Assembly: GCA_020852295.1 (NCBI GenBank) | Contig: JADZBC010000016.1 | Coordinates: forward strand, 294 to 64,293 | DNA length: 64,000 nt | Direction of reading: 5' to 3' | Origin: a bacterium | Lineage (GTDB): Bacteria; Patescibacteriota; Saccharimonadia; CAILAD01; JADZBC01 | Part shown: piece by piece, positions 6,208 through 64,000 of the stretch | Layout of the letters: each line of letters starts with the position of its first letter | Position numbering within the stretch: position 1 is the first letter of the stretch | The notes under the pieces: generated by a model | Database searches by the model: none | What the model saw: only the letters and a program-made list of their open reading frames with translations | Told to the model about the DNA's origin: nothing | Program-made: the position numbers and the translations under genes

Positions 6208-6251
6208 TAGCTTTAGTGTACTACGATCTTGGGATTGAATATAGATGAGAT

Positions 6252-6327
6252 TGGTCAGGGTGACAGGACTTGAACCTGCGACCTCACGGCCCCCAGCCGT
6301 ACGCGCTACCAGCTGCGCCACACCCTG
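6252..6327 (-). tRNA. tRNA-Pro (anticodon GGG), CCA encoded
   Basis: Hand-folded cloverleaf: 7-bp acceptor CAGGGTG/CACCCTG, D-stem GCGC/GCGC, anticodon stem TACGG/CCGTG, loop CTGGGGG with G37, T-loop TTCAAGT; total 76 nt. Confidence 0.8.
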
Positions 6328-6409
6328 ATAAAGATATTGTACTATGTTTCTCGATCAAAAATAGCTTTCAACTTTACATGATTGTCATGCTAAGGCATAA
6401 TACTTATGT

Positions 6410-6952: not shown

Positions 6953-7161
6953 AAAACAGGCACCTTGGGCGCCTGAGAATGAATATAATGCCGGCTCCGC
7001 TCAAGAACCGCGTTCGTCACAACTCTTCCTGGACCACGCCAGGTGGGTGTCCGCAGCATGCACGCCTATAGCGAGCAGCAATCTAGGTCTCCCAAAATGA
7101 TACTTAAGCAGAAAAGTTGCGACGTTAAAGTGCGAGAGCAGCAGAGCTTACGCTCAGTATA

Positions 7162-7797: not shown

Positions 7798-7841
7798 GGC
7801 CCTATTCTAGCCTATTTCCAGTCCTCTCACCAGTCGAACAG

Positions 7842-7870
7842 TTGCACTTATCAGGATAAAATGCTATGAT
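7842..7870 (+). promoter_or_regulatory. Sigma70-like promoter upstream of rpmB
   Basis: TTGCAC, 17-nt spacer, TATGAT, lying 32 nt upstream of the rpmB ATG. Confidence 0.45.
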
Positions 7871-7901
7871 AACGCAGTTATATCACTAGGGTAAAAATAT
7901 T

Positions 7902-8123
7902 ATGTCTCACAAATGTGATCTTACAGGTAAAGGCAAGCAGTTCGGCTCAAACGTCAGCCACTCGATGCGCCACACCAAGAAAGTGTGGAAGCCAAACCTG
8001 CAAACCAAAACTCTCATCATCGATGGCCAGGCTGTACGTCTCAAGTTGGCCGCTTCGACGATCCGAACACTGAAGAAATATCAGGCACAAGAAGCTGCCC
8101 GCGCTGAAAAAGCTCAGGCGTAG
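7902..8123 (+). CDS. rpmB: 50S ribosomal protein L28
   Basis: MSHKCDLTGKGKQFGSNVSHSMRHTKKVWKPNLQ matches the L28 N-terminal signature; 73 aa. Confidence 0.85.
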   Translation: MSHKCDLTGKGKQFGSNVSHSMRHTKKVWKPNLQTKTLIIDGQAVRLKLAASTIRTLKKYQAQEAARAEKAQA

Positions 8124-39466: not shown

Positions 39467-40543
39467 CTAGATCTTGATATATTCGGCTATCTTAGCCTTG
39501 CTACGCTGATCCTTGAGCCAACTATCGAGGTCGGTCGCCTTGATAAGTATCTGCGAGATACGGACCTGATCATCTTTCTTTTCGGTAACCTTAATGATGT
39601 GGTAACCGTACTGGGTCTTGATAATGTCGCTGTATTTACCAACTTCCAGCTTAAAGGCAGCGTCTTCGAGCTCAGGAACTCCGAGCTGACCACGGCCCAC
39701 AAAACCGAGATCACCACCGTTACTCGCGTAGCCATCAGTTGAAGTCTTTTTGGCAAGTTCGGCAAAGTCCGCACCAGACCCAAGCTGCTTGAGGACATCA
39801 TCGGCCTGCTTCTTGGCAGTCGCGTTGAGCTTGTCATCTTTCACGATCTTGTCGCCAAGCTTTTGCTGCAAGATTCCATCGCGAATCTTGTCTTTGAAGT
39901 CAGCTACCGTCCAGCCATAAAGTTTGTCTAGAGTTGTTTTTACTTTGTCTGGACCACCTGCTTCTTTGACGATGTTGTTGTACTGATCTTCGATCTCTTT
40001 TTGAGAAACAGTAATACTATACTTACGTGCGCCCTGGGCGTAGATGATGTTGTTTTCGAGACGCGTCAGGATCTCCTTCTTCATTTTGGCAAGCTGTTCT
40101 TTGCCTTCTTTTGAGTTGAGGTCAGTGCCCTGGTACTGCAAGTATTTTTTGATTGAGTTTACTTCAAAAAGATACTGTCGATAGGTTGCGACGTTCCACA
40201 GTACGCTACCGTTGACGCTCACTACTGGATACGGCACGATCATGGCAGCGATCTCAACGGCTCGGCTCTCGCTCTTATTCTTGTAAATGAGTACACCAAA
40301 AGTCACGAGCGTTACTACCAGCGCCGCCAATGCCCCGACACCGATAATCACTGCAAGCTTTTTGTTTGGTTCACGCTTCACTCCAAGCTTTTTGAGCCGC
40401 TCTGAAAAACCCGGCTTTGTAGGGGTCTCAACTTTAGCAGCAGCTGGCTTTGTAGTCTTAGCTGGAGTCGATTTTGTAGTAGCTTTGACTGGCTTCTTGG
40501 CTGAGGTTGATTTTGGTTTTTTACTATCTGATGCGGTGGCCAT
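39467..40543 (-). CDS. Membrane-anchored parvulin-type peptidyl-prolyl isomerase (PrsA/SurA-like foldase)
   Basis: Lys/Ala/Thr-rich N-terminus, TM anchor and a C-terminal PpiC domain ([44 protein letters not shown]). Confidence 0.7.
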
Positions 40544-47184: not shown

Positions 47185-48240
47185 CTAGTTCTCGCAGGTT
47201 GGGTCATTTTTGCCGGCATTTGGACCAGCACCGCTGTAATCGCTATAGACCTGCATGGTTTTACAAAGGTTTTTGCCGGAGTAGAGGACATTTGATACAA
47301 AATCAAATGTCGTGTATTCGATTGGCTTCGTAGCCTGTACCCGACGATAGGTCTGGCCTGACCGAGCAGTGACATCGATCACGGCGTACGGAAAACGCAC
47401 ATTCGACGGGTTGCCTGCGGAGTCGGCAAAACGCATAGAGTAACTCGTGCCGGTATATCGAGACGTAACTCGGATGACAACATTTTTACCCGATGGAATA
47501 CCAAGTGTTGCTAGGTCAACATAGCCGGTACCGTTCGCATTTGGATAGCCACATTGATAATTATTCATTGCAGCTGGCGGATTTGGGTTGCAGCCACTTG
47601 GGCTGAGCAGAATAGTCTTCATTGGAAGGCTGCCGCCAGAAAAGTCTGAAGCGTTGAACTTATCGGGATCTCCCACATTGCCATACCAGACAAATGTGAG
47701 CTCTAGCGTCGCAGGACGCGAACCATAAGCACTCAAGACTGGATAGTATGGATTTGGTGCTGCTGGTAGTCCTGAGGCAGCACCGTCTGTGCCCTTTAGG
47801 CCCCAGTTTAGGCGTAAGTTTCGAACATCCGAAACTCGCGACAAATCAACCTGAACTGTATTGTCGCGATCGATTTGACCACTCATACTGTCACCTTGAT
47901 TGGTTACCGTGGCGCACGTCACCGCTACATCACCCTGAGCATCATTGATTTTCTGTTCAGGCTGCTGGCTACCGGTGTCGCCAAAGTCGTTACATTTCTC
48001 AAATGTCTTACTTGGATCGGCCGCGATCTGCTGCGCCAACTCCTGCACCTTCGATTGAGCACCATTGAGCGCACGGTTACTCTGGTCAGTGTTACTTGCT
48101 TGGCGACTCTCTTGGTTTGAAAGCAACGTAAGCCCGGCAATCATACCAACAACAACAATGCTCAATATGATCGTAACCAGGATTGAGGCTGCACCAGTTT
48201 TTTTCTTGAAAAGCTTACTCATATGCTTTGATTGGTCCAC
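47185..48240 (-). CDS. Pilus-associated protein with a non-canonical N-terminal TM, Cys/Gly/Pro-rich; possible minor pilin or tip-associated protein
   Basis: Hydrophobic N-terminus lacking the G-F-T-L-E class III motif; sits at the 3' end of the minor-pilin gene string. Confidence 0.4.
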   Translation of the reverse strand: MDQSKHMSKLFKKKTGAASILVTIILSIVVVGMIAGLTLLSNQESRQASNTDQSNRALNGAQSKVQELAQQIAADPSKTFEKCNDFGDTGSQQPEQKINDAQGDVAVTCATVTNQGDSMSGQIDRDNTVQVDLSRVSDVRNLRLNWGLKGTDGAASGLPAAPNPYYPVLSAYGSRPATLELTFVWYGNVGDPDKFNASDFSGGSLPMKTILLSPSGCNPNPPAAMNNYQCGYPNANGTGYVDLATLGIPSGKNVVIRVTSRYTGTSYSMRFADSAGNPSNVRFPYAVIDVTARSGQTYRRVQATKPIEYTTFDFVSNVLYSGKNLCKTMQVYSDYSGAGPNAGKNDPTCEN

Positions 48241-48284
48241 TTCTTTATGCTTATGCTATCACTTATCGCCCACCGCTGCAATCA

Positions 48285-48950
48285 CTATTGATTGAGTCCA
48301 AAGAACGCTACATGGACAGTTAACGTGTTTTGAAACTTCTGCGGCGAGCCAAAAAGAGATACTGGCGGCCCCTTGCGCTTTACGCCGAGCAGTAGATCAA
48401 CTGAATAAGTTTTTGAGCCACCAGATCCCGGCGCCGGGGATGTAGTTACAATTGTCGGATCAAACACGTTCACACTGACACTCTCTGCGCTCACTACTGC
48501 TGCTCCGGTAGCCCTTGTGCCAACCTCATTGTTCAGAGCTGTCTCTTCTGGAGATCCGGCGATGGCCGGGGCGCAGGTTGTAACTGCTGTAGTCAGCTCT
48601 TTTCGCAATAATCTGACCGTAGTATCTGGCGCAGCATAATCAGCTGGGCTGACTACGCTCGTAAAATAGAGGAGTGCTCTCTGGCTTGAGGGCTTCAAAC
48701 AGAGCACCTTGGCACCACCAGAGTTGATAACCTTCATGTCCTGGGAAAATTCGGCTCGTCGGCCAATTTCTTCAGTAATATTACGAACGGCCTGCTGATT
48801 ATCTCGTGAAGAGTTTGCTCCTGCATAGATAGTAAGTGAGTTCACGAACGCGCCAATGGCAGCTATGAGTAGAAAGCTAAACATGGCGGCAGCAATAATC
48901 GCTTCAACTAAGGTGAATCCCGGGCGTTTTTTCCTATAGAGCCGCTTCAT
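48285..48950 (-). CDS. Minor pilin / pseudopilin with class III signal peptide
   Basis: KKRPGFTLVEAIIAAAMFSFLL prepilin leader. Confidence 0.65.
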   Translation of the reverse strand: MKRLYRKKRPGFTLVEAIIAAAMFSFLLIAAIGAFVNSLTIYAGANSSRDNQQAVRNITEEIGRRAEFSQDMKVINSGGAKVLCLKPSSQRALLYFTSVVSPADYAAPDTTVRLLRKELTTAVTTCAPAIAGSPEETALNNEVGTRATGAAVVSAESVSVNVFDPTIVTTSPAPGSGGSKTYSVDLLLGVKRKGPPVSLFGSPQKFQNTLTVHVAFFGLNQ

Positions 48951-49417
48951 TAGTTAAGATCCCCCAGTCTCACAAATAGCGTTACTTCGTCGGAGGCATC
49001 CCCTACATTTGGTCGGACGGAACTTTGCCACTTCACCGATACAGTAAAGTTGCAGTACGTCACTCCAGCTGGGCAGTCAGGGGTGATTTTTTGTTCAAAT
49101 GGAGTTTCGGTCGTAAGTGCGCCTGATTGCCTTACCCAACCTGCGGCCGGATTGGCAGTATCAAATGACATATAAAAACTTGAGCCCCCTACTTCGCTCT
49201 TAAACGCAGCCCACAGCTTGCTCTTCTTGTATGCCTTGAGTGCATCCGCTTGGCGTTGCGCCAACCCAGTAGCCTTTGTCCGTTCACCCGCAAGTCGCGA
49301 CGCACGCCAGGCATTGAGCGAGCCAGATGTCGCGATCGTAATGACGCTCGCCAGAATTGCCAGACTGATCACTACCTCAATGAGGGTATCGCCACGCCTC
49401 ACGCCTAGATGCTGCAC
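48950..49417 (-). CDS. Minor pilin / pseudopilin
   Basis: RRGDTLIEVVISLAILASV leader. Confidence 0.6.
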   Translation of the reverse strand: MQHLGVRRGDTLIEVVISLAILASVITIATSGSLNAWRASRLAGERTKATGLAQRQADALKAYKKSKLWAAFKSEVGGSSFYMSFDTANPAAGWVRQSGALTTETPFEQKITPDCPAGVTYCNFTVSVKWQSSVRPNVGDASDEVTLFVRLGDLN

Positions 49418-50163
49418 TTTGCACCTCCTGGATACTGCTGTATGTCATTTGCAGCTAAATTAATGATAATGCACGCGCTTAAGCCCGGATCTTTGGTACC
49501 TTTGAGTTTGAGCATAATCTTTTGTGCGGCACTACTATTGTAGCCATTGGAACCTGATGTCGGAATGAGCTCCATGTCGCTAGTGCGCGAGTAACCAAGG
49601 TCGTCAGAAAATACTTTTGTCTGTATTGGCAGTGTAGTTGAATCCTTGCTTAGCTTATAAAACACTACAAAAACCGAGTTCTTCGAACAGCTCGTGAGCG
49701 ATGCGCCCGCTCTTACCTGATAACAGTCATACCCCATTTCCGCAGGCAGAATCTTGCCACTCGCTGCATATGGCAGGACGCTACCGGCTGATCCGACTTT
49801 CAAACGACGCTCTTGATAATTGGTTACTAACCCTGCATCGGTAGTAAAGTTAAAGCCGCTGTGTGTACCACCGGCGCCATTAAAATGCAACGCCTCACCA
49901 AAAAGCAGATCGCCCGGCTGAAGCGGGCACGACGACCCACCCGGACAGTTGCTATCCGGCTCTGGGCCGATTCCTGCCTCGGCACGGTTGAGTGAAAGAC
50001 GTAGCGAGCTTTGTAGTTGCTGTGTATTGATATCGAATTTTGCGCGATCATTGTTGCCAAGAGCGGAAAATGCCGCAGGCACCATTAGTGCGGTGATAGC
50101 AAGTACGATAACTAGCTCGATAAGAGTTACACCTGGTCGAAGTTGTAAGGTTGAGCGCTTCAT
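49405..50163 (-). CDS. Minor pilin / pseudopilin
   Basis: RPGVTLIELVIVLAITALM leader. Confidence 0.6.
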   Translation of the reverse strand: MKRSTLQLRPGVTLIELVIVLAITALMVPAAFSALGNNDRAKFDINTQQLQSSLRLSLNRAEAGIGPEPDSNCPGGSSCPLQPGDLLFGEALHFNGAGGTHSGFNFTTDAGLVTNYQERRLKVGSAGSVLPYAASGKILPAEMGYDCYQVRAGASLTSCSKNSVFVVFYKLSKDSTTLPIQTKVFSDDLGYSRTSDMELIPTSGSNGYNSSAAQKIMLKLKGTKDPGLSACIIINLAANDIQQYPGGAKCSI

Positions 50164-50202
50164 ATTTTAGGCTATTATACCACTTATGCTATCTACGGAC
50201 AC

Positions 50203-50979
50203 CTAATACAGCCGTAGCTTGTCCGCAAAAATCAAGCCAAAGTAGAGGCCAAATATCAGATACGGCCCAAATGCGATGTGGTCGGTGCGCTTCTTGCGGC
50301 CAGTCAGTAGCAACACAACTGCCACGACTGCACCGGCATTAAATCCTGCCACCGTCGCGACGGCTAGCTGCCAGGGATGCAGCAGCATACCCATGATGGC
50401 CGCCAAGCGAATATCCCCGTCCCCCATCGCCTTACCACCAGAGAAACGCCACAGTCCGTAGAAAAAGAATGTCACGACCGCAATGCCGGCCAGACGCGGC
50501 CAGAGCTGCGACGGGTCAGCAGCAATAATCACAAGCAAGTACAGCGCGGATAGGGCCAGCGCGGGCGTCGTGAAGACGTCTGGCAGCAATGAGTGCTTTT
50601 GGTCGTAGCTGCATGCACCGACGAGCAGTACCGTGATAGCTAGGAGTGTCACGAGCTTCACCCACCCTAGCAAATTGGTTGGGTCGAAGTAGCTAAAGAG
50701 AACCAGAAAGAGCGCAGCCGTCATTGACTCTACTATCGGATACCGTGGCGAGATAGGCTTGCGGCACATCCGGCACTTACCCGCCAGGACGGCGTAGCTC
50801 AGTACTGGCACCAAGTCATACCACTTCAGTGGTTTTTTGCAATGAGGACACATCGAGTGACCCTTGGCGATACTACGCTCAGTCTCGATGCGCCATACCC
50901 AGGCGTTGATAAAGCTCCCAAAGATAAGACCGAGGCCTGTCGCAAAAACCGCCCCTACAATGAAGTAATCACCTGTCAT
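50203..50979 (-). CDS. pilD: Prepilin peptidase (A24 family)
   Basis: N-terminal CxxC...CxxC tetracysteine plus polytopic membrane domain (CPHCKKPL...CRMCRKPI). Confidence 0.8.
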   Translation of the reverse strand: MTGDYFIVGAVFATGLGLIFGSFINAWVWRIETERSIAKGHSMCPHCKKPLKWYDLVPVLSYAVLAGKCRMCRKPISPRYPIVESMTAALFLVLFSYFDPTNLLGWVKLVTLLAITVLLVGACSYDQKHSLLPDVFTTPALALSALYLLVIIAADPSQLWPRLAGIAVVTFFFYGLWRFSGGKAMGDGDIRLAAIMGMLLHPWQLAVATVAGFNAGAVVAVVLLLTGRKKRTDHIAFGPYLIFGLYFGLIFADKLRLY

Positions 50980-50985
50980 AATTAC

Positions 50986-51435
50986 CTACTGACTACTCGT
51001 CAGTGTGTAGACACCGCCCTCAATACACATTTTAAGAGTAAAGTCTCTTGGTGAACCTGCATTGGAATTTTTATAGAATATCTTGGCATTCTCAGTTGAG
51101 CTGATATTTGTACAGGTTGGGTCGCCATATGCATAGCTATAGTTGCCACCATTGGGTCGCGGATCATTGATCGAGCCTGCTTTCCAGTAGCCTTCAGAAA
51201 CAAATCGACCGGCTGTACCGCTCCAGTCCGTCCCCCAGACTGGGTATTTTCCACTGTTGTTGTCAGCCCACTGCTCTAGCGCAGTTGAGAGTTTATTGAC
51301 ATCAGCCCGGCGACGCGTATCGCGTTGACTTCGTTCAGCACCCTGGGCGCTCAGTAATACAGTGGAGGTGATTAGCGCACCTATAGCCAACGCTATTATT
51401 AGCTCAAGAAGTGTAAATCCAGACCTTTTCTTCAT
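50986..51435 (-). CDS. Type IV pilin (second pilin gene)
   Basis: KRSGFTLLELIIALAIGALI leader; 149 aa with C-terminal Cys residues. Confidence 0.65.
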   Translation of the reverse strand: MKKRSGFTLLELIIALAIGALITSTVLLSAQGAERSQRDTRRRADVNKLSTALEQWADNNSGKYPVWGTDWSGTAGRFVSEGYWKAGSINDPRPNGGNYSYAYGDPTCTNISSTENAKIFYKNSNAGSPRDFTLKMCIEGGVYTLTSSQ

Positions 51436-51479
51436 TACTCTTATGTTAGCACATTTACCCGTCTAAACAAAAAGGATTA

Positions 51480-51509
51480 AAAAAAGACGCCGGATGGCGT
51501 CTTTTTTTA
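51480..51509. terminator. Hairpin terminator between the two pilin genes
   Basis: GACGCC-GGAT-GGCGTC flanked by A- and T-runs. Confidence 0.55.
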
Positions 51510-51521
51510 ATTTCTGATTTA

Positions 51522-51932
51522 CTATTGTGCGTTGTAAGTAGCTCCACCTTCGAGACATACACTAGCCTTGTCAGGTGCAAACTCGATGCGGATAACTGTT
51601 GGTGCCGCTGTGGCAGAACAGCTCAATGCTCCAGCCTGGTACGTATAGGCTACCAGGCCCGCATTACTGTCAACTGGACCACGCTTATCTGGCACTGCCG
51701 CTTCAACTTGAGCAACAGTCGGAGTGCCGCCGTTTACCCCAAGATTTGCACGAGCATCAGTGATAGCAGCACGTGACTTGTCCGCCAAAGCACGACGACC
51801 ATCATTACGCTGTGAACGTTGGGCCCCAGTAACCCCCAGTAATACGATCACAATAATCAAGGCCGCAATAGCTAGTGCAATTACGATTTCAATCAGTGTG
51901 AAACCCTTTTTAGTTGATAATGTCTTTTGCAT
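51522..51932 (-). CDS. pilA: Type IV major pilin candidate
   Basis: KKGFTLIEIVIALAIAALII class III leader; 136 aa with a C-terminal Cys pair; strong SD (AGGAGGGTG) and its own terminator. Confidence 0.65.
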   Translation of the reverse strand: MQKTLSTKKGFTLIEIVIALAIAALIIVIVLLGVTGAQRSQRNDGRRALADKSRAAITDARANLGVNGGTPTVAQVEAAVPDKRGPVDSNAGLVAYTYQAGALSCSATAAPTVIRIEFAPDKASVCLEGGATYNAQ

Positions 51933-54494: not shown

Positions 54495-56278
54495 TAGTAA
54501 TCACTCGCTACCCTTGCTACTTCTTCTATAGTTGTGACTGCGGTTAGTGCCTTGAGAAGACCATCCTGTTTCATGGTAAGCATGCCATCTTTCATAGCTT
54601 GCTCTTGAATCTGCGTCGTGGTCGCATGATTGACCAGCAGATGCTCCATGGCATCGTTCATCTCAAAGACTTCAAATATACCTACACGGCCCTTATAGCC
54701 ATCAGTACACTCTTCGCATCCCGCCCCCTTATATAAAGTATAAGCGTTTTGGTTAAAGAGTGGCAAGTTTTCGTAGCCAACCCAAGCCTCAATCTTCGCC
54801 CGATCGGCTTCACTCTTTGGCAAGACGTAACCGAGTGACTGATTGATCATCTGGGTAGCAGCTGGGGTTGTCTGAAATGGCTGCCGACACTTGTCGCAAA
54901 CTCGTCGCACCAGTCGCTGACCAATCACCGTGTTGATGGTAGAAGCAACTAGGAAAGGTTCGATACCCATATCTAAAAGACGTGGCAGTACTCCGGAAGC
55001 CGAGTTGGTGTGCAGCGTGGAAAGCACGATGTGTCCAGTTAGCGCAGCTTGTACCGCCAAGTCGGCTGTTTCGTGGTCACGAATCTCGCCAACCATGATG
55101 ACATTCGGGTCCTGACGCAAGATGGAGCGCAATCCGCTCGCAAAAGTGAGACCCACCGCCGTATTGACCTGAATCTGGTTAATGCCGTCCATTTTGTACT
55201 CAACCGGGTCTTCGAGGGTGACGATGTTGATCTTGACCGATTTAATCTCCTGAATGACCGCATACAGGGTGGTTGACTTACCAGAACCAGTCGGACCAGT
55301 TGAGAGAATCATGCCGTGCGGCTTGGACATACCATTTTTGATCAGTCGGTAGGCTTGCCCGCGGAAGCCGAGGGTGTCCAGGCTAATCATCTGGTCATTC
55401 TTATCAAGAATACGAATCACGACCTGCTCGCCATAGGTCAGTGGTGCGATGGCGATACGAAGATCGACTTCGCGACCATTGATCTTGTACTGCGCCTGAC
55501 CATCCTGCGGGATACGGTGTTCATCGATCTTGAGGTTGGACATAATCTTAATACGCGATATTAGCGCCGGCTCGGTGCTCTTTGGGAGTGTCATCGCCTC
55601 TTGCAAGATTCCATCGATACGAAAACGAATCTTGAGCTCATGCTCGCGCGGCTCTACGTGAATGTCCGAGGCTTTCGAGTTGATCGCATACTCAAAAATG
55701 GCATTGAGCGCCCGAGTGATTGGTGCGTCCTGTACGATCGTCTCGACCTTCTTAGAGGTCTCTTTATCGACTTTCTGTCCCTCAACCGTGGTCTGCTGCT
55801 GTTGAGCAGTGTCGAGCTCTTTAGCGACCTCAGCGCCAAGATTGGCCACATAGCCACCAATGATCTTCTCAATCTGTCGGTGCGATGCCATGAATGGATT
55901 GACGTAGTAACCCGTTTTCTTCGAGATAAAGTCAATTGCCTGCAGATCTTGCGGATCAGCCATAGCCAAGTTGAGTTTGCCATCGACCATACCAATTGGC
56001 ACAGCCATGTAGCGCTGCGCAACATCGCGTGGCACTAGACGGAGAACCTCTTCAGGAATCTGCTGGTTCGTAAGATCAACGTATGGCACATGTGAAGCAA
56101 TGGCCGTAAGCTTGACTGAGTCTTCTTCTTTGAGGAGTTTCTGCTCAATCAGAATGTCTATAGTGGTCTTGCCAACCTTGGCCGCCTCGATGCGCGCCAG
56201 CTCCATAGCGTGTGAGTCCACAATATTGTTATCGAGGATCAACTGCTCTATCTTGTGGAGAGTTTCGTTACTGAGCAT
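54494..56278 (-). CDS. pilB: Type IV pilus assembly ATPase (GspE family)
   Basis: T2SSE_N domain, GPTGSGKSTTLYA, TLEDPVEY, GHIVLSTLHTNSASG and a C-terminal tetracysteine CDKC...CEEC. Confidence 0.85.
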   Translation of the reverse strand: MLSNETLHKIEQLILDNNIVDSHAMELARIEAAKVGKTTIDILIEQKLLKEEDSVKLTAIASHVPYVDLTNQQIPEEVLRLVPRDVAQRYMAVPIGMVDGKLNLAMADPQDLQAIDFISKKTGYYVNPFMASHRQIEKIIGGYVANLGAEVAKELDTAQQQQTTVEGQKVDKETSKKVETIVQDAPITRALNAIFEYAINSKASDIHVEPREHELKIRFRIDGILQEAMTLPKSTEPALISRIKIMSNLKIDEHRIPQDGQAQYKINGREVDLRIAIAPLTYGEQVVIRILDKNDQMISLDTLGFRGQAYRLIKNGMSKPHGMILSTGPTGSGKSTTLYAVIQEIKSVKINIVTLEDPVEYKMDGINQIQVNTAVGLTFASGLRSILRQDPNVIMVGEIRDHETADLAVQAALTGHIVLSTLHTNSASGVLPRLLDMGIEPFLVASTINTVIGQRLVRRVCDKCRQPFQTTPAATQMINQSLGYVLPKSEADRAKIEAWVGYENLPLFNQNAYTLYKGAGCEECTDGYKGRVGIFEVFEMNDAMEHLLVNHATTTQIQEQAMKDGMLTMKQDGLLKALTAVTTIEEVARVASDY

Positions 56279-56289
56279 AGGTGACCCCC

Positions 56290-56541
56290 TTAGTTGATAA
56301 CTGGTTTTGGCGTAGCGCTTGCGTCTGGCTTAAGCTCTTGAGAGAAGTCTTTGATCTTCTTGTCGTTTTTGAGTGCACCCATTTGTTCACTGTTTGGCAG
56401 ATCTGTCTTGACTGGTCGCGGCACAATAACCTTGATGCCCGAATCAGCTGGTGGCGGTACTACAATACGGTACACCATGGCACTCGCAACAATCAGGATG
56501 ATGGTCGAAATGACGATTGTGATGATATCTTTTCGTTTCAT
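56290..56541 (-). CDS. Small single-pass membrane protein within the pilus operon
   Basis: 83 aa with one TM and a Pro/Lys-rich tail. Confidence 0.35.
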   Translation of the reverse strand: MKRKDIITIVISTIILIVASAMVYRIVVPPPADSGIKVIVPRPVKTDLPNSEQMGALKNDKKIKDFSQELKPDASATPKPVIN

Positions 56542-57245
56542 TACTTCAGGTCCTCTTCACGATCTTCGATATTTGCTTTGTCCTGGTAGTAAGACAAGAA
56601 ATCAATTTCAGCTTTTACTTCGGCCGACGAGCCGTCGAGTTTCATCTTACGAAAGTTGATGACGCGAGCTGACTTTTCGGTATTGGCCAAGAAATCCAAT
56701 AGGGCCGGGTATGAGCCGATGATAGTGACAGTAAAGGCCACTGGCTTGGGAGACTGCGGTTCACCAGGGCCGCCACCGGTATTCTCAGTAGTGCTCGTAC
56801 TGGTGCTGGCCGCCTGATCAGTCTGCTTCACTTCCTGCATCTTCACGTTGGCCTGTTTAGCCATTTCTTCAAGCATGGCGTAGAGATTCTTCTGATCTTG
56901 CGTGTATGGCAAAGCTCGCAAAATCAGTTCTGCGTCACTCACCTTAGCATCTCCGCGCACTTGCTTCACTTCTTTGTATGCACCATTTTTGAGTGTCTCA
57001 AGATCGTTCTTCTTGGTCTCCAAGAGGCCCTTCTGTTTCTCGAGTGCCTTGAGCTTATTGGAAGACTCCAGGAAGCTATTTGTTAAGTTCCAAATGAAGT
57101 AACCGCCGACTAGCAAGATTGCCCCGACGATGATACCGGAGATTACGAGATAGTTGGTTGTGCCCTGGGTATCTTCGAGTGATACCTGGGTATTTGGAAT
57201 ACTTAGCTTTGGTTTCTTTGTAGCTTGCTTGATGTCTTGTTTCAT
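56541..57245 (-). CDS. pilO: Pilus assembly protein PilO-like
   Basis: Single TM, coiled-coil, then a C-terminal domain; position and size match PilO. Confidence 0.55.
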   Translation of the reverse strand: MKQDIKQATKKPKLSIPNTQVSLEDTQGTTNYLVISGIIVGAILLVGGYFIWNLTNSFLESSNKLKALEKQKGLLETKKNDLETLKNGAYKEVKQVRGDAKVSDAELILRALPYTQDQKNLYAMLEEMAKQANVKMQEVKQTDQAASTSTSTTENTGGGPGEPQSPKPVAFTVTIIGSYPALLDFLANTEKSARVINFRKMKLDGSSAEVKAEIDFLSYYQDKANIEDREEDLK

Positions 57246-57934
57246 TGGTTCGTCTCCGTCGTAACGGTTCCTGGGCTGCTACCCTTGATGAGATTACGAT
57301 CGAGTAGGAATGTCATTTCGTAGCTGACTTTGCCGGTCTTCAAATCCTGCGAACTCTTGGTGATGTTGGTCTTACTAAAGAGGGCTTGGCCTGGGTCAAG
57401 GTTGAATCGTTGGCTCTCTGGTCGATCCTTTTTGTACGTCACATTATATGCTTCGATGGCCTGAGCAAACGTACTAACTGCCTTATAGTCATCTGCCAAG
57501 CCCTTGATCGTTGCAAGACTCAAGCTTGATGATGAGTCCGTTGATGAGCTACCGCTGGCAGTATCAGAATCCGATATCTCAAACGAGTTTACTACCACAT
57601 TTGGCTGTATGGTATTGCTTAAGTTGCCAAATACGCTACTGGCAAAGAGTCGGTCAGCATTTAGCTTATAGAATGAATCGAGATGCTCTTGTAAATCGGC
57701 TGCTGTTTGTTCGACATCGCGCAGATCAGCTACATCTTTTTTGAAGCGCTCAATATCCCCTTTTACAAGTGATTCATTGGCGGCATTGGCGGCAAGCAGA
57801 AACAGAAGCGTACCAATGATCGTACCAACCACCAGCGCAACAAAAATAAGTCCCCCTGTAGCAAGCTGCTTGCGACGGCGATTGCGCAGCTTAACGAGTC
57901 GTGCTTCGGGTAATAGATTAACAACGACACTCAT
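57242..57934 (-). CDS. pilN: Pilus assembly protein PilN-like
   Basis: N-terminal VNLLPE motif, TM, coiled-coil. Confidence 0.6.
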   Translation of the reverse strand: MSVVVNLLPEARLVKLRNRRRKQLATGGLIFVALVVGTIIGTLLFLLAANAANESLVKGDIERFKKDVADLRDVEQTAADLQEHLDSFYKLNADRLFASSVFGNLSNTIQPNVVVNSFEISDSDTASGSSSTDSSSSLSLATIKGLADDYKAVSTFAQAIEAYNVTYKKDRPESQRFNLDPGQALFSKTNITKSSQDLKTGKVSYEMTFLLDRNLIKGSSPGTVTTETNQ

Positions 57935-58986
57935 TAGACAAAGTTCCTCATAGCAAGACCAATTGCGCTGGCGTAATTGAGCGAAATCGTTGCAAGCTTA
58001 GGCTGTAATGCGGCCGGGTAGCTCACGTTAACCCATGGGTTACCAATCTCAACCGTAATGCCGGTAGAGTTAGCTAGATAGACCGGTAACTCTGGCAGCG
58101 CTGACGTACCACCCGTAATGATAATCTTCTCGATCTTGTCGCCACCCGAGTGCTCGTGGAAATATGACACCGACTTATTGATCTCTTCAACCACCGTATC
58201 AAGTACAGGCTTGAGCGATTTGTATACTTGCCCCTCGAGTTTGGTCTGGATCAAACCAAACTTGCGCATGAACTGCTCCCCTTGCGCTTCATCGAGGCCA
58301 AGGTTTTGGCTAACTACTCGAATCAGTGCACGCGATCCGACATTAACTGTGCGCACGAGCTTCGGTACTTGATGTGAAATGATGGCCATGTCGGTCGCAA
58401 CCGAGCCAATATCCACGATGATGACCGAGAGATCTTTGTTTGTCGTGAGTGAGCGCGCTTGGGCAATCGGGTTAATTTCGAGCGCGAGTAATTCTAGGCC
58501 AGCTTTTTGAATAATATTGAGGTATTTGTTCGCAACAGAATTTGGCGCAGCAACCAGTAGTACCTCTACCTCCTCGGCATTTCTTCCTGGACCGACGACA
58601 GTCCAGTCGAGTTTCACCTGGTCAATGGCCATCGGTATATACTTGTCGGCCTGAAAACGAATAGAACTGGCCAGCTCATCATGTGAGAGCTTTGGTGTAT
58701 TGATAACTGCTACATATGAACTTACTGAGGGCAAAGCCGCCACCACGTTCTTTGTCGAAACACGAGCGTCGTCAGCTAGTTTGCGTACGATATCGCTCAG
58801 GCGATCCTGATCGACGGGAGAATCAGAATTGAGCAGTCCAGTAGGCGTCTGGATGTCCCCGTAGGTCACCAAACTAGGCTTGCCGTGCAGATTCTTCAAC
58901 TGCACTAGCTTTATACTACTCGCCCCCAAATCGAGTCCAAAATAATTTTCTTCTTCTTCAAAGAGACTCATAGCTGATCCTAGCAT
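57934..58986 (-). CDS. pilM: Pilus assembly protein PilM (actin-like ATPase fold)
   Basis: YFGLDLGASSIKLVQL phosphate-1 motif and actin-like fold length. Confidence 0.75.
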   Translation of the reverse strand: MLGSAMSLFEEEENYFGLDLGASSIKLVQLKNLHGKPSLVTYGDIQTPTGLLNSDSPVDQDRLSDIVRKLADDARVSTKNVVAALPSVSSYVAVINTPKLSHDELASSIRFQADKYIPMAIDQVKLDWTVVGPGRNAEEVEVLLVAAPNSVANKYLNIIQKAGLELLALEINPIAQARSLTTNKDLSVIIVDIGSVATDMAIISHQVPKLVRTVNVGSRALIRVVSQNLGLDEAQGEQFMRKFGLIQTKLEGQVYKSLKPVLDTVVEEINKSVSYFHEHSGGDKIEKIIITGGTSALPELPVYLANSTGITVEIGNPWVNVSYPAALQPKLATISLNYASAIGLAMRNFV

Positions 58987-59010
58987 AACAACTTTTGTCT
59001 GAAATGTGAA

Positions 59011-62000
59011 CTAAAAACGAGGATTTAATTCACCGTACAAGTACTGTACTTCCGTTGCACTCGGTGTGTAGCGATCCTCAAAACCTGGGGCTGGGTAAAT
59101 TAGCCCCTGGGCAGCACCCGCGAAAAGCTCTGCCGGCTGATTGCTACTGCGATTTGGCCCACTGGTTGCATAGAAGTTTCTCCCGAGTTCAAAACCACGA
59201 GTCGCACCAACTGATCCAACCACACTGAGCGATTGATTACAGCTCTGAGATGGATATCCTTCGCAGGTCTTAATCTTGCCGCTGGCGTAGAGCATTGCGT
59301 CGATACGGCCAACATTGCTGCGGATAATGATGTCACCCTCAACGATGATGCCGAGATTTGGCAGTAAGTTTTCATTATAGTTACCCCCCTGTGCGGCAAA
59401 GTCATTGCGGATATCACCGGTAATCGTAAGATTACCCTTGATCCAAAGTGTCGCCCTACCCTGCGTGATCGTCAGTCCACCAATCGTGCGGTCGCCATCA
59501 GCTGGACGCCAGATTTTCGCACAGTTTGCGTTAGAGTTGATGACGCCGCTCGTGATCATAGAGTTTTCGACTTGGTAAGGATTCTCAATACCGTCAGATG
59601 GCGTTGCCGGACAGCTCGTGATACCCGCCGGACGGTTGCCATACTTGTTGATATTGCGATAGATATCGTCTTCTGGGGAGACATTCGGCGCGTAGAGCTT
59701 ATTCTTGCAGGAATCAAGATCGCTACTAGCCTCAAGTCCGAATGCCATGCGATTGAGACTGCAGAAGTTGGTAGAGATGCGAGACATGATAACGTACTCC
59801 GCTTCTTTTGTACTGACATCGGCCGTGTTGCGGCCACCGTTGATACCGGTCGTCTGACCGATTATCTGGTCCTTCACCATCACGTCACCACGCTTAGTCT
59901 GTACCCATGGGTTGAAGCGACGTCGATAGCGCACCACCACATCATCACTTGAGTCGCCGCCATCACCACTACATATAATCCGGTATCTGACTTCTCGATC
60001 ATCAACCGAGGCGTCACTCGAGCGATTCTCGTTGCCGCCGCCTACGGCCTTCGGTCCGGACCATGGTGAGCCGATCGCTGGGCCACTCAATACTGCAGTG
60101 GAAGCCGTGCAGCTCTTAGCTGGCCCGCCACCCACGGTCCAGCGTACCCCTACCGACGTATCGGACTCAATTTCAACTGGGCTCGGTGGATTATCGAGAC
60201 CATTAACCGTCAAATCTACATTTGGTGGCGGTAATTTACGGAAATATACCGTCACATACGTGCGCTTACCTGCTGCAAGATACGGGGTGACCTGAAGCTC
60301 AGTCCAGCCATAGGGGCTATCTGGATACTGCACCACTACCCTATCGACCACCCAACCAGTGTTGGGGGCCACCAATGTCGAGACACCGAAGTAACCTGTG
60401 TTAGTTGACGACAGGGGTCCTTTTAGTACCGGTTCGCTGTTGGATTTGCAGAAGTTACCCGGTATCTGCAGACAGGCTCCTGCTGCAACTGGCGGATTAT
60501 TGAAGCTCGGACTCACATTACCATTTTGGTCTATCGTCTTAAATCCGATATAGGCTTCTGATTTCCCTGCTTGGCAGTTGAGCCGTACGGTGTGAAAGGC
60601 TGGTGAATATCTTCCATTAGATTGACCGGCTACCGAAACAAGCTTAAATGTCAGCCCCGAGAAATCGGCACCACCGGGATTACCCTGACTATATTGGACC
60701 GAGGCGATACTACAGCCTGCTGGCACATTTGAGATAGTCGCCTGCCACAATACATAGCAGCTATATTCTCGCGAAGTCAGAAAACCGCCAGACGCATTCG
60801 TGGTGGTACTTCCGGATGTTAAGCCACCACAGAAGTCGCCAGCGGGTTCACCGCCACGCTGAGTGATAGTAAGGGTCGCATTTGCAACGGGCGCACCACC
60901 GCTATCAAGTATTTGCCCGCCATATCCCGTCCAGTGGTTTGGCCCTGGGGTACCTGGACACGCTTCGGCCGGCTGCGGCAATATGAAAGCCAACACTCTC
61001 GAAAAGACCGATTGCCCTGAATCAGCTGAGCGACATTGGTACTGTGAGCCTGTGCTAGCGATAAGGATCTGTGGCGATAAGCCAGTCCCAAAAATCCGTG
61101 CCCTCGCCAGTGCATCTTTTGTGTAGCTTTCCCAGTCTGCAAATTGACCACCAGTTTTATTTTCGAGCCGGTAGATATAATAGTAGCCGCCCTCTGACCG
61201 TGTTACCGAGGTGTAATCACCGATGTTCTTGAGTGCGAGTATCGCTTCTTTGTCTTTTGGGTCAGCAAACTGCTTCAGTCCAACTGATGCGCTTAATCCT
61301 GTCAGTACTTCGCTATACGCTGTGTCTGGATTGATTTTATAGTCCTCATTCTCTTCGTAATTTTTGATCGTGACACTATTTTGCAGTATCTCCTCAGTAC
61401 TGGCTTTACGCTCAAACAGCGGAAGATACCGTTTTTCGAGTGTCTCTTTCGCTTTACGATCTACCTCTTCGTCGCTCACCTGCGGCCGATTGGGGTTGTA
61501 ATCCCAGCGCGTGGTGACACTAAGCACATCTACGGTACTCAATAGCTTATTGGCTAGTTTCTTCTGAAGGACAGAGATCCTAATGGGGCGCAGTGCATTG
61601 TCGGCAGACAGTTCATTTGCTTGAGCCTGGACCACTTGGTACTGACGAATTGCTTCTGCATCATCAGCAGATGTAATTTTTGGATCGGTGGATCTGACTT
61701 CACTTGCAATCTCACCTGTAAGCAACGGAACATTATTGGCCCTCGCATCATTCTCGAGACTCTTCTCTAGAATGAGTTGCTCACGGGTATATTTCTCAAC
61801 ATCGTCATTAATAACTGTGTTTTGGCTTCGCTTACCATAGCTCCGATACGAATCCAACGCAGCGCCGTATTGCTGCTTCGTGATCACCTGGGTGCCAACG
61901 CGAGCGTACACATCTTTATTGCGGATAAACATGACCGCAACGTAGCAAACTAGCACAGCAATAATACCGATGCCAAGCCACTTCTTTGACTGCTTGCGCA

Positions 62001-62076
62001 GCTGAGCGGTCTTCTTGACCTTCTGCTGGTCGATTAATTCTTCAGCTTTCGGTGTATTGGAAACTGGTTCCACCAA
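59011..62076 (-). CDS. Large (1021-aa) membrane-anchored extracytoplasmic protein at the head of the pilus operon, with a beta-helix-like C-terminal module ending ...APGFED...GELNPRF
   Basis: N-terminal TM, a SurA_N-like chaperone segment and Cys-rich Gly/Ser-rich domains. C-terminal 250 aa are shared with the next gene (VRYRIICSGDGGDSSDD..VRYRRRF, TITQGRATLWIKGNLTI, ...NPRF). Confidence 0.55.
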   Translation of the reverse strand: MVEPVSNTPKAEELIDQQKVKKTAQLRKQSKKWLGIGIIAVLVCYVAVMFIRNKDVYARVGTQVITKQQYGAALDSYRSYGKRSQNTVINDDVEKYTREQLILEKSLENDARANNVPLLTGEIASEVRSTDPKITSADDAEAIRQYQVVQAQANELSADNALRPIRISVLQKKLANKLLSTVDVLSVTTRWDYNPNRPQVSDEEVDRKAKETLEKRYLPLFERKASTEEILQNSVTIKNYEENEDYKINPDTAYSEVLTGLSASVGLKQFADPKDKEAILALKNIGDYTSVTRSEGGYYYIYRLENKTGGQFADWESYTKDALARARIFGTGLSPQILIASTGSQYQCRSADSGQSVFSRVLAFILPQPAEACPGTPGPNHWTGYGGQILDSGGAPVANATLTITQRGGEPAGDFCGGLTSGSTTTNASGGFLTSREYSCYVLWQATISNVPAGCSIASVQYSQGNPGGADFSGLTFKLVSVAGQSNGRYSPAFHTVRLNCQAGKSEAYIGFKTIDQNGNVSPSFNNPPVAAGACLQIPGNFCKSNSEPVLKGPLSSTNTGYFGVSTLVAPNTGWVVDRVVVQYPDSPYGWTELQVTPYLAAGKRTYVTVYFRKLPPPNVDLTVNGLDNPPSPVEIESDTSVGVRWTVGGGPAKSCTASTAVLSGPAIGSPWSGPKAVGGGNENRSSDASVDDREVRYRIICSGDGGDSSDDVVVRYRRRFNPWVQTKRGDVMVKDQIIGQTTGINGGRNTADVSTKEAEYVIMSRISTNFCSLNRMAFGLEASSDLDSCKNKLYAPNVSPEDDIYRNINKYGNRPAGITSCPATPSDGIENPYQVENSMITSGVINSNANCAKIWRPADGDRTIGGLTITQGRATLWIKGNLTITGDIRNDFAAQGGNYNENLLPNLGIIVEGDIIIRSNVGRIDAMLYASGKIKTCEGYPSQSCNQSLSVVGSVGATRGFELGRNFYATSGPNRSSNQPAELFAGAAQGLIYPAPGFEDRYTPSATEVQYLYGELNPRF

Positions 62077-62134
62077 ATAAACTCACAATTCTTATGCTTA
62101 CTATGCTAGCGCAAACTCGGTTTGCTCACAAGCG

Positions 62135-64000
62135 CTAGAACCGCGGATTTGCCTCACCGCTTGAGTACTTCACTGCAGTGGCGTCGTCGCTCAAGATATC
62201 TTCGAATCCTGGCGGCGGGAAGACGATCGATTGGGCGGTACCAATGAGGCTTTCGGCAGGTACTGTGCCGGTGCGGTCTGCCCTATTGGCAGCACCTAGA
62301 TCAACGGCATTTCGACCGAAGTAAAAGCCACCTTCTGCACCCATAATTCCGAGAACAGTAAGCGCTCGATTACAGGATGGACTTGATGGAGTAGCATAGG
62401 CTGAGCATGTTCTGATTTTCCCGTTTGTGGAGTCGGTGTCATTGTCTCGGTAGGCGTAGAGGGCAGCCTGAACATTTGTAACGCTCGGTTCAATAACGAT
62501 ATTTTTGGCAATAAAAGCAACATTTGGATACTGGTTGGTTGTATAGCTCGCCTCTCCCGTCGGATTCGTCAGCACATTTCCGCGTATTGTAAGGGTGCCC
62601 TTCACCCATACTGTAGCACGACCTCGTTTAATGCTGTATCCATCAAGCGTGTAGTTACCGTTGATGACCCATATTTTTGCACACACCTTGTCTAGCGCAC
62701 CACCGTCAACCAATTTTCCGCTGTTTGGTAAATCTGATACAAAGGATACATCGTATGGACGCTTAGAACTTTCAGGATCATTAGGAGGCGCACAGGAGAT
62801 ATTGCTGCTGCCAGGAGCATATTTCTCTAAACTCGCCTTAACTAAGTTGCTTGGGTTGTTCTCCGGCACATAGGCTCCTGCTTCACATGGGTAAGCCTGT
62901 GTTTTAGGAGGCACCATGCCGAAAAGTGCAGGATAACGACTACAGAAATATTTTGACAATGTAGACATGACGACATAGTCAGCCGATCCTTCAGAGCTGC
63001 TATATGAACCTGCTTTTTTATCTGAAGCAGATGATGCTCCTGAAACCTTGATCTCGTTCATGATCGAGACGTCGCCGTTTTGGGTCTTAATGTATGGATA
63101 GAATTTTCGACGATAACGAACCGCGACCGTCGATGTATCGGAATCTCCGCCTGGCCCAGTACATTTAATTGAATACTTAATTGTGCGGTCATTGGTGTCG
63201 CTATCAATCGCGCGATCTTCTGTTCGCTCGGCTTGAGTACCATCACCCCTACGTGCACCCGTCCAACTGACACCAGAGTCATTACTTGCCGTACATCCCG
63301 TTACAATTCCGCCCGGCTCCCAGGTGAGATCGGCTTGGTGCTGCCCTGGCGTGCGATCTGCTTCAATCAATACCGGATTTTCGGTTGCATTTGTTTTGCC
63401 ATTCATCTTCAAGACTACCGTTGGCTTAGGTGCCTGTTTGTAAAATGTACTAAGCACAGCATCCACTGCACCACCAGCGCAATTGTCGGCCACGGTTATG
63501 GTTGCGACCGTGACAAAACCACCACCAGGAGCATACCCCCATGGACCGGCTAAGCCACCACCACACGGATAATAGATTTCAAAATGGTCAAATACCCAGC
63601 CAGATGCAGGCTTAGGCGCTCCGCCGCCATTACTCACAACCATGGCGCCATAATCCTGAGCAACGAGCTCATAAGTTGTGGTGGCAGTGGGGGTGTCATT
63701 TGTATTACATGCCCACAGCGGTGCGGTTACAAACACATTGGACATGCACGTCATGACCCCTCTATTTTCCGTCTGCGGTATATTGGCCTTGACTCTCGTA
63801 CCATCGTTCTTAATTTGCCAATGCTCAATTGATATTTGCCCATTACGCTGCACACAGTCCATGACCAGCCAAGTATTTGGATCATCGGTGCCATTTGCGC
63901 CACTCTGCAGTGTCATTGGCGCCTCGTAGGTACAGCCAGCGTACGAAACGATAACTTTCCAGTACATATAGCAACTAAAGTCGCGACCAGATCGCCACCA
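62135..64000 (-). CDS. Paralog of the preceding large pilus-linked protein, truncated at the window end (its N-terminus lies beyond 64000)
   Basis: The reading frame is open to the window edge. C-terminus IKYSIKCTGPGGDSDTS.VAVRYRRKF, IKRGRATVWVKGTLTI and ...PPGFEDILSDDATAVKYSSGEANPRF parallel the upstream gene. Confidence 0.55.
   Translation of the reverse strand, partial: WWRSGRDFSCYMYWKVIVSYAGCTYEAPMTLQSGANGTDDPNTWLVMDCVQRNGQISIEHWQIKNDGTRVKANIPQTENRGVMTCMSNVFVTAPLWACNTNDTPTATTTYELVAQDYGAMVVSNGGGAPKPASGWVFDHFEIYYPCGGGLAGPWGYAPGGGFVTVATITVADNCAGGAVDAVLSTFYKQAPKPTVVLKMNGKTNATENPVLIEADRTPGQHQADLTWEPGGIVTGCTASNDSGVSWTGARRGDGTQAERTEDRAIDSDTNDRTIKYSIKCTGPGGDSDTSTVAVRYRRKFYPYIKTQNGDVSIMNEIKVSGASSASDKKAGSYSSSEGSADYVVMSTLSKYFCSRYPALFGMVPPKTQAYPCEAGAYVPENNPSNLVKASLEKYAPGSSNISCAPPNDPESSKRPYDVSFVSDLPNSGKLVDGGALDKVCAKIWVINGNYTLDGYSIKRGRATVWVKGTLTIRGNVLTNPTGEASYTTNQYPNVAFIAKNIVIEPSVTNVQAALYAYRDNDTDSTNGKIRTCSAYATPSSPSCNRALTVLGIMGAEGGFYFGRNAVDLGAANRADRTGTVPAESLIGTAQSIVFPPPGFEDILSDDATAVKYSSGEANPRF

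Follow-up and report, generated by a model that had tools for sequence, protein, structure and literature searches.

The window analysed here is a stretch of 64,000 nucleotides from a bacterium of the Saccharimonadia (GenBank contig JADZBC010000016.1). At its far end lie two large genes on the minus strand, here called P1 and P2, which stand directly upstream of pilM at the head of a type IV pilus (T4P) operon. We propose, tentatively and at a little less than an even chance, that their products are accessory, surface-exposed binding proteins coupled to the pilus; judged from their sequences, they look like additions to the core assembly machine and not like parts of it. The proposal is built on the anatomy of the two proteins, the fold class of the C-terminal module that they share, the place of module genes before pilM in related genomes, the absence of such a gene from that place in the cultured model strain Southlakia epibionticum, and the pattern of divergence along the operon. 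An earlier note on this DNA had pointed out the pair and had offered an envelope-spanning conduit replacing the secretin, or an adhesin or anchor, among the possible functions.

Position of P1 and P2 in the pilus operon

P1 occupies positions 59011..62076 of the minus strand and encodes 1021 aa from a TTG start. Of P2 (62135..64000, minus strand), a paralog of about 1070 aa, the window shows the C-terminal 621 codons, the gene running on past the window's end; the P2 frame has no stop codon up to base 64000, which gives at least 621 codons, or 62135-63967 when counted from the first ATG. Between 59011 and 64000 there are no other long open reading frames (ORFs). The P1 protein is identical to NCBI entry MCC7289534.1, deposited as 'carboxypeptidase regulatory-like domain-containing protein', a name that is uninformative. 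A spacer of 58 nt (62077..62134) separates P2 from P1, and one of 24 nt (58987..59010) separates P1 from pilM (57934..58986; Pfam PilM_2, 158 bits).

Downstream of pilM, and like it on the minus strand, follow a pilN-like gene (57242..57934), assigned by its position, its N-terminus MSVVVNLLPE and PilN Pfam matches in its equivalents, a pilO-like gene (56541..57245) with a weak T2SSM_b match, an 83-aa ORF, and pilB (54494-56278), pilT (53277-54494) and pilC (52015-53274), which were assigned by a Pfam T2SSE/T2SSF scan. The pilin cluster (47185..51932; Pfam N_methyl and Peptidase_A24) comprises two pilins, PilD (50203-50979; Peptidase_A24), three more prepilin-like genes and a 351-aa gene. The equivalent of the pilO-like gene in S. 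epibionticum, SEML1_0106, has a T2SSM_b domain, and 'Pilus assembly protein PilO' is among its closest named relatives. The arrangement given in the earlier note, two large proteins on the same strand directly upstream of pilM-pilN-pilO-pilB-pilT-pilC with the second running past the end of the window, is therefore correct.

A promoter and terminator scan of the minus strand found no terminator-like site at either the P2-P1 or the P1-pilM junction, and neither junction folded better than shuffled sequences (z -0.53 for the P2-P1 spacer). The spacing and the lack of terminators suggest that P2 and P1 are co-transcribed with pilM, and so tight a position in the operon speaks for a functional link with the pilus.

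The 83-aa ORF between pilO and pilB (56290-56541, minus strand) encodes one transmembrane (TM) segment and has counterparts in the same place in three related loci (L numbers denote loci, P0 numbers family members), L027 (83 aa), L029 (94 aa) and L031 (87 aa), as well as in S. epibionticum (SEML1_0107, 75 aa), where it is essential in transposon sequencing (Tn-seq). It is an unnamed conserved small component of these pilus loci. The 351-aa gene that closes the pilin cluster (47185-48240, minus strand) has a hydrophobic N-terminal segment and no Pfam match; it is the positional equivalent of SEML1_0116, for which the published structure-based annotation gives a pilin fold plus a galactose-binding-like domain.

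Paralogy and domain anatomy

Residues 432-1021 of P1 align with residues 2-621 of visible P2 at 30% identity (BLASTP, E 2e-68), a similarity far beyond chance. An ortholog of P2, P0002, has 1072 aa, is 79% identical to visible P2, carries a TM segment at about residues 32-55 and a PrsA-like region, and is 33% identical to P1 over 1088 columns, that is, over its entire length. The positional equivalent of P2 in L027 has 1068 aa. On account of these two proteins we regard P1 and P2 as full-length paralogs of about 1020 and 1070 aa. Orthology between P1-type and P2-type copies across genomes is to be read with care, P2 being about equally close to P0004 and P0006.

The earlier note had described an N-terminal TM anchor in both proteins and a shared C-terminal module of about 250 aa. 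The anchor is seen in P1. The visible part of P2 contains no hydrophobic segment in a hydropathy scan, its N-terminus lying outside the window, and an anchor can be expected there from P0002 and the L027 equivalent. As to the module, the quoted motifs VRYR..C.G.GGDS, GRAT.W.KG.LTI, PGFED and NPRF are all present in the BLASTP alignment, but the size has to be revised: about 600 aa are common to P1 and P2 within the window, the likeness spans the full length when judged by P0002, and the module that is conserved family-wide measures about 300 aa (P1 717-1021).

P1 begins with a Lys-rich cytoplasmic tail of 32 residues and a signal-anchor TM helix (residues 33-51; 61924..61980, minus strand), as found by hydropathy scan. 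Next comes a region resembling PrsA and PpiD (64-308; 61153..61887), which combines a SurA_N-like chaperone domain with a parvulin remnant. The middle region (341-611; 60244..61056), built from beta-rich domains that contain Cys, diverges more than any other part of P1 and has a weak CarboxypepD_reg-like match (Pfam, 20.7 bits). It is followed by a putative immunoglobulin (Ig)-like domain (612-716; 59929..60243) that ends in VVVRYRRRF and is common to P2; its fold is suggested by sequence pattern only. The C-terminal module (717-1021; 59014..59928), with six invariant Cys, closes on the conserved tail E-L-N-P-R-F-COOH (59014..59031). The extracytoplasmic part of P1 holds 16 Cys in all.

In P2 the module, which ends in GEANPRF, together with the stop codon spans 62135..63112 of the minus strand (281 bits with profile A2), and the putative Ig-like domain just before it is a hypervariable patch (visible residues 198-270; 63191..63409). 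A Pfam scan at E up to 0.01 gave SurA_N and CarboxypepD_reg as the sole matches of P1 and none for P2, and an NCBIfam scan returned no match for either protein.

The conserved C-terminal module

Fold comparison of its predicted structure places the P1 module among triangular right-handed beta-solenoids with a flanking helix. As modelled, then, the module is a beta-helix or beta-solenoid of the type seen in ice-binding proteins and in ComZ, and structure prediction agrees with the earlier description of it as beta-helix-like. Modelling was restricted to the module, the last block of which has a predicted local distance difference test score (pLDDT) of about 35; a single-sequence AlphaFold2 (AF2) model of P1 612-1021 reached a pLDDT of 37 and was discarded.

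The module starts with Y-P-W-L-Q-T-x-x-G-D-V and continues with F-C-S, the six invariant Cys, GRATxWVxGxLTI and the further motifs PNLGIxVxGDIxI...IDAxLYATGKIxTC, PAE and PPPGF, before ending in E-x-x-P-R-F. Among 80 such tails, 65 have E at -6, 71 have R at -2 and 62 have F at -1. The E-x-x-P-R-F motif stands at the C-terminus or at most two residues from it, and at the exact C-terminus in most of 150 representatives. A sortase or exosortase sorting signal was considered for the tail and rejected, since no hydrophobic helix follows the motif, which sits at the chain end or at most two residues short of it.

Searched exhaustively with a profile, 1.84 billion cluster representatives yielded 366 proteins at E<=1e-3, 128 at E<=1e-10 and 26 at E<=1e-30. 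The exhaustive search was needed, as a word-indexed protein search returned a single match each for P1 and for the module profile. Only the six closest proteins (five whole, and one N-terminally truncated entry of 418 aa) matched the full profile of about 600 aa; almost all others were limited to the last ~320 profile positions. The module forms the extreme C-terminal part of proteins measuring 400-2230 aa. Their N-termini are of two kinds, either a TM anchor behind a charged tail of 20-90 aa, or a signal-peptide-like start, often with an AxA-like site. The signal-peptide-like start prevails among the 150 listed representatives. Most of the TM-type members tested have the PrsA-like region, and none was found in the signal-peptide-type forms tested.

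No Pfam or NCBIfam model exists for the module. Weak matches to DUF7305 were obtained for 5 of 28 members (best E 0.0029). PDB sequence searches gave nothing for P1 and nothing for the module profile at E up to 10, ComZ included, and a fold search of viral structures in BFVD gave nothing either (best E 0.06).

In a subgroup of TM-type members (P0025, P0030, P0055, P0068, P0081, P0102, P0106, P0107, P0112, P0117 and P0122), the cytoplasmic tail opens with the conserved motif MP(K/R)SIDSIGxKP; P1 and the P2-type members are without it. PilN binds PilM through an N-terminal INLLP-type peptide, and the motif is placed where PilN bears this PilM-binding V/I-NLLP peptide (MSVVVNLLPE in the PilN of the window).

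Conservation of the place before pilM

In 19 of the 20 informative loci, those with sequence available beyond the last module gene, the gene that follows directly is pilM (L001-L005, L009-L012, L015, L018, L019, L022, L025, L026, L027, L029, L031 and L032); some of these loci are closely related. The loci came from scans of GTDB species genomes and JGI metagenomes with module patterns, from look-ups of representatives and from look-ups seeded with PilM; in all three PilM-seeded samples a module gene was found next to pilM. Alignment A2 was too variable for the locus scan, for which the narrower A3 and A4 were used, and the scans reach only members with an exact PW[LV]QT..GDV-type pattern, so that the counts are not estimates of prevalence. 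PilM identities range from 33% to 99% across the loci, and L018 keeps the order of module gene and pilM at the lower end of this range. Neither a separate transcription unit nor a lack of co-occurrence with pilus genes, the two observations that the earlier note had named as speaking against membership of the T4P locus, was found.

The content of this place is less constant than its occupation. Copy number (1-3), size (557-2230 aa) and anchor (TM helix or cleavable signal peptide) differ between genomes. Tandem pairs occur in L011, L012, L025 (1275 aa and 2230 aa) and L027, and L001 shows the end of an upstream copy. The upstream neighbour of the module genes is often a divergent ychF.

Among the loci from GTDB species genomes, six of seven belong to metagenome-assembled genomes (MAGs) assigned to Saccharibacteria, Saccharimonadia or unclassified bacteria. 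The seventh, L006, is in a Bacteroidia MAG. Its contig (JBILVK010000212.1) is only 3.4 kb long and the N-terminus of its protein is nearly identical to that from the Saccharimonadia locus L005; this placement is probably a binning error and not a sign of a wider taxonomic range. The samples that carry module genes include wastewater and lake metagenomes, and the organism of the window is probably an environmental member of the Saccharimonadia.

It could be argued that P1 and P2 are generic wall or surface-layer proteins without a tie to the pilus, in which the module anchors a variable protein to the wall and the synteny reflects shared expression or history. A conserved terminal module joined to a variable remainder, fast evolution and paralogy are all typical of such proteins. 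Furthermore, in L013 the module gene is followed by two unassigned ORFs and not by pilM, and L017 has three weak tandem copies on a contig that then ends with no pil genes in view. However, the place before pilM is kept in the 19 loci over the whole range of PilM identities, the spacers in the window are short and free of terminators, and the predicted fold is common to ComZ and the tapirins, both of which are linked to pili. We consider an explanation without the pilus very unlikely.

Divergence, mosaicism and exchange of anchors

Compared with L027, PilM is 94.9%, PilB 93.0%, PilN 76.7% and PilO 64.5% identical, whereas P1 and P2 reach 37.5% and 35.8%. P1 and P2 are the fastest-diverging of these operon genes. 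Divergence is uneven along the protein: between P1 and its positional equivalent P0004, identity is 57% in the module, 41% in the Ig-like domain, 36% in the PrsA-like region and 25% in the middle region. Between P2 and its strain-level relative P0002, identity drops from 98-100% in the flanks and module to 32-35% in the hypervariable patch, and the nucleotide comparison of the two genes gives a mosaic pattern.

A larger replacement is seen in L031 and L032, which have an identical PilM protein and different gene structures upstream of it. L032 has a single fused gene of the TM/PrsA type (1545 aa; 3338-7975), L031 (3723-7975) a 344-aa anchor gene (3723-4757) plus a 1074-aa gene of the signal-peptide type (4751-7975). 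From mid-gene on, the two loci are 95% identical in nucleotides, while the 5' 2.6 kb cannot be aligned. A small gene encoding a charged tail and a TM segment lies directly upstream of the module gene in several other loci of the signal-peptide type (L003 8266-8646; L022 75-377; L019 1159-1452; L029 5249-5800; L005 5153-6094). The N-terminus of the upstream anchor protein resembles that of TM-type members in L029, L031 and L005, and L031_344 and L005_313 are themselves related anchor proteins. When scanned with the PrsA-like profile, the small upstream genes give no match; they have only the tail-plus-TM part in common with TM-type members. This polymorphism of fusion and fission argues that anchor and module protein work together.

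The window is collinear with the T4P1 locus of S. epibionticum from pilM through PilD, the pilins, an integrase and ndk to a PrsA-like gene. In that strain, ychF (102732-103880, minus strand) abuts pilM (103892-104944) with no module gene between them, and the T4P1 genes are essential in Tn-seq. A text search of the structure-based annotation of S. epibionticum found no ice-binding, antifreeze or solenoid entry, and the TM7x pilus paper makes no mention of such a gene.

These observations bear on the possibility that P1 and P2 are structural parts of the machine, for example a membrane-tethered, wall-spanning guide, collar or anchor that replaces PilP, PilQ or TsaP and aligns PilMNO with an opening in the wall or outer layer. 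In nearly every locus the module genes are the first of the pilMNO operon, a TM anchor with a long stalk of beta domains could span the envelope, the conserved module could bind a conserved structure of the cell itself, and the conserved cytoplasmic peptide of one subgroup would suit such a part. Against this, S. epibionticum, with a functional and essential T4P, has no such gene in the place before pilM next to ychF; the module genes evolve by far the fastest in the operon, with mosaic replacement at the strain level; copy number, length and anchoring vary; and the signal-peptide forms have no anchor of their own. P1 and P2 also have no Pfam match to Secretin, PilP, AMIN or LysM. On balance we regard a structural part of the machine as unlikely.

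The conduit proposed in the earlier note as a replacement for the secretin is disfavoured for much the same reasons: such a gene is absent from the pilM locus of a strain with an essential pilus, copy number, size and anchor vary, the genes diverge fastest, P2 carries a hypervariable patch, and upstream genes are exchanged in the manner of a cassette. The same five observations fit a surface-exposed accessory protein under diversifying pressure. Of the possibilities named in that note, the adhesin or anchor therefore suits the divergence and plasticity better than the conduit does.

The PrsA/PpiD-like region

The N-terminal third of P1 and P2 is homologous to the PrsA-like foldase of the same genome across both SurA_N and parvulin domains. 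This foldase is encoded by a stand-alone gene (39467..40543, minus strand) with a tail, a TM helix, SurA_N and an intact parvulin domain, as determined with Pfam and hhalign. A profile of 14 TM-type members aligned with it over 200 columns (hhalign probability 96.9%, E 1.5e-10). In P1 the SurA_N_3 match (24.1 bits) stays below the Pfam cut-off of 27.2; four relatives (P0012, P0015, P0030 and P0035) exceed the SurA_N cut-off. The only PDB sequence matches of the region are SurA-like chains (best E 2e-4). The SurA_N-like segment that the earlier note had recognised in P1 is borne out by these relatives, the profile comparison and the PDB matches.

Where the foldase has the parvulin motif GYHIIKV, P1 reads GYYYIYRL and the family consensus GYYxIxRLE, so that one conserved histidine is replaced. 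No Rotamase match was found in P1 with Pfam, and the remnant has probably lost peptidyl-prolyl isomerase (PPIase) activity. The stand-alone foldase carries a Lys/Pro/Thr/Ala-rich N-terminal tail of about 60 aa before its TM helix, and it is the positional equivalent of SEML1_0121, classed as ES (GD at the earliest time point) in published Tn-seq.

Given this homology, P1 and P2 might instead be extracytoplasmic chaperones dedicated to the pilus, whose PrsA/PpiD-like part holds or folds pilins or a large minor pilin near the platform, with the rest of the protein accessory. The match across both domains to the genome's own foldase, the four relatives above the SurA_N cut-off, the SurA-like structures as sole PDB matches and the PpiD/PrsA topology of tail, TM helix and chaperone all agree with such a role. 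Yet it is the C-terminal module, not the chaperone region, that defines the family and is best conserved. Of the 150 listed representatives, most have a signal-peptide-like start, and no PrsA-like part was found in the genes of this kind that were tested; the GYHII histidine is lost, and the PrsA-like profile picks up none of the small upstream anchor genes. A dedicated chaperone seems to us decidedly improbable.

Proposed model of an accessory, pilus-coupled surface protein

Under the favoured reading, that of accessory binding proteins, each protein would be inserted with its N-terminus inside and its C-terminus outside the cell through the signal-anchor helix. The membrane-proximal third would be a duplicated PrsA/PpiD-like chaperone scaffold with one catalytic-site histidine gone. 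About 380 residues of fast-evolving, disulfide-capable beta-sandwich domains would form a stalk, and the stalk of P2 would carry the hypervariable patch, which probably determines specificity. The beta-solenoid and its E-x-x-P-R-F tail may dock to a conserved partner or a repetitive polymer, a task that all family members would share. Since the module is conserved and the regions before it are variable, we assign this common docking task to module and tail, and specificity to the variable region. Candidate partners are the pilus or its tip complex, a glycan of the wall or the host, and DNA. Relatives of the signal-peptide type may build the same system from a small separate membrane anchor and a secreted module protein.

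Several points speak against this model. The distal head is the conserved part, whereas many adhesins vary there; the head may bind the producing cell itself, which would bring the proteins nearer to a machine role. The subgroup motif MP(K/R)SIDSIGxKP may point to a partner in the cytoplasm, which would be in keeping with a part of the machine, and the nearly invariant place next to pilM is tighter than that of the tapirins, which are only 'proximate' to a T4P locus. The L013 exception belongs here as well, as does the scope of the absence in S. epibionticum, which refers to the locus and the annotation text, with no search of the genome sequence.

Other genes of the window

The window contains a second duplicated pair of envelope proteins, encoded in tandem at 22951-27312 and 27316-31665 (both minus strand). 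These giants of 1453 and 1449 aa are 47% identical over their full length, have a His/Arg-rich N-terminal tail, a TM segment and Pfam DUF2341, fn3 and Pur_ac_phosph_N domains, and share the C-terminal tail ...SAIVGRA.DS.LSIIFNAL.RIFGF. A 1465-aa protein (154-4551, plus strand) combines He_PIG and Y_Y_Y Ig-like repeats with a C-terminal HATPase_c domain and is presumably a sensor kinase whose extracytoplasmic portion is very large. The 372-aa protein at 37916-39034 (minus strand) has a domain of the uncharacterised family DUF4185 (98.9 bits).

Implications for epibiont pili

The determinant of host recognition in these epibionts is not known, and the T4P gene lists come from oral strains, at least one of which is without a module gene at its pilM locus. 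At the head of their pilus operon, the environmental relatives carry a conserved gene family that has so far gone without annotation. Four traits set it apart: a fold known from binding proteins linked to pili, a patch that is hypervariable at the strain level, cassette-like replacement beside an identical PilM, and fusion to an anchor derived from PrsA. If the proteins are coupled to the pilus, they would be candidates for a specificity determinant and a marker by which to tell environmental pilus loci from oral ones. If they are machine parts, they would constitute a wall-spanning component of a monoderm pilus that is absent from the canonical T4P model and from the TM7x and S. epibionticum papers.

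Comparison with known systems

The statement in the earlier note that the family lies outside canonical T4P models is supported by the lack of Pfam and NCBIfam models and by its absence from the T4P papers on TM7x and S. epibionticum. Neither the combination of a PrsA-derived anchor, a variable beta stalk, an ice-binding/ComZ-like solenoid and a PRF tail nor the fixed place before pilM is described in those papers. The idea of an accessory binding protein linked to the pilus is already known from tapirins, ComZ and PilY1. By analogy, the modelled fold is that of modules which bind repetitive surfaces or polymers, and two of its three classes, ComZ and the tapirins, are linked to pili.

PpiD and PrsA have the same layout as the N-terminal third of P1, with a tail, one TM helix, a SurA_N-like domain and parvulin. 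P1 differs from them in being three times longer, in the replaced GYHII histidine and in belonging to a family defined by its C-terminal module.

The third class comprises the type 1 ice-binding proteins (DUF3494, PF11999), whose triangular solenoid with flanking helix is found in the modelled P1 module. Structural alignments with comparators of the ice-binding type gave identities of 8-16%, none of 28 members matched the DUF3494 profile at E up to 1, and one member had a very weak match (E 0.78) to pAdhesive_15, a 'putative ice-binding-like adhesive domain'. Ice binding as the function was rejected, because there is no sequence membership in DUF3494 and because the fold is shared with proteins that bind other polymers, namely ComZ and, at a greater distance, the tapirins.

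The tapirins of Caldicellulosiruptor (e.g. Calkro_0844; PDB 4wa0, 6n2b and 6n2c) bind cellulose. No sequence similarity to the P1/P2 family was found, and the match to their fold is weaker than that to the ice-binding proteins. Their N-terminal part is conserved and their C-terminal part variable, whereas the P1/P2 family shows the reverse. Tapirin genes are near a pilus locus but do not head a pilM operon, and neither a PrsA-like region nor a PRF tail has been described for them.

ComZ, the tip pilin of the competence pilus of Thermus thermophilus (PDB 6qvi), binds DNA and contains a beta-solenoid resembling ice-binding proteins, as modelled for the P1 module (16% identity in the structure-based alignment). 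The solenoid of ComZ is inserted into a GspK-like pilin fold and hence lies in the fibre. P1 and P2 have no N_methyl match, pilin domain or prepilin motif, and have instead a cytoplasmic tail (32 residues), a signal anchor and the PrsA-like region.

PilY1 is a large non-pilin protein of the pilus cluster, with a conserved C-terminal domain that docks to the minor-pilin tip complex and a variable, adhesive N-terminal region. The polarity of conservation in PilY1/PilC of diderm type IVa pili (T4aP) is thus the same as in the P1/P2 family. The C-terminal domain of PilY1 is a beta-propeller, whereas the P1/P2 module is modelled as a beta-solenoid; PilY1 is encoded in a minor-pilin operon and not upstream of pilM, and P1 and P2 are predicted to be membrane-anchored. 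Membership of P1 and P2 in the Secretin, PilP or PilY1 families was considered and rejected, as they have no such Pfam domains (including PilY1/Neisseria_PilC).

A functional counterpart of PilY1 and ComZ might nevertheless be imagined, to which we give a low probability. The solenoid and the probably flexible E-x-x-P-R-F tail would dock on the pilus, at its tip complex or its exit from the wall, and the neighbouring hypervariable Ig-like region would set the host surface or polymer, for example DNA, that is bound. P1 and P2 would then form a swappable host-range cassette that was dispensed with in the host-restricted oral lineage.

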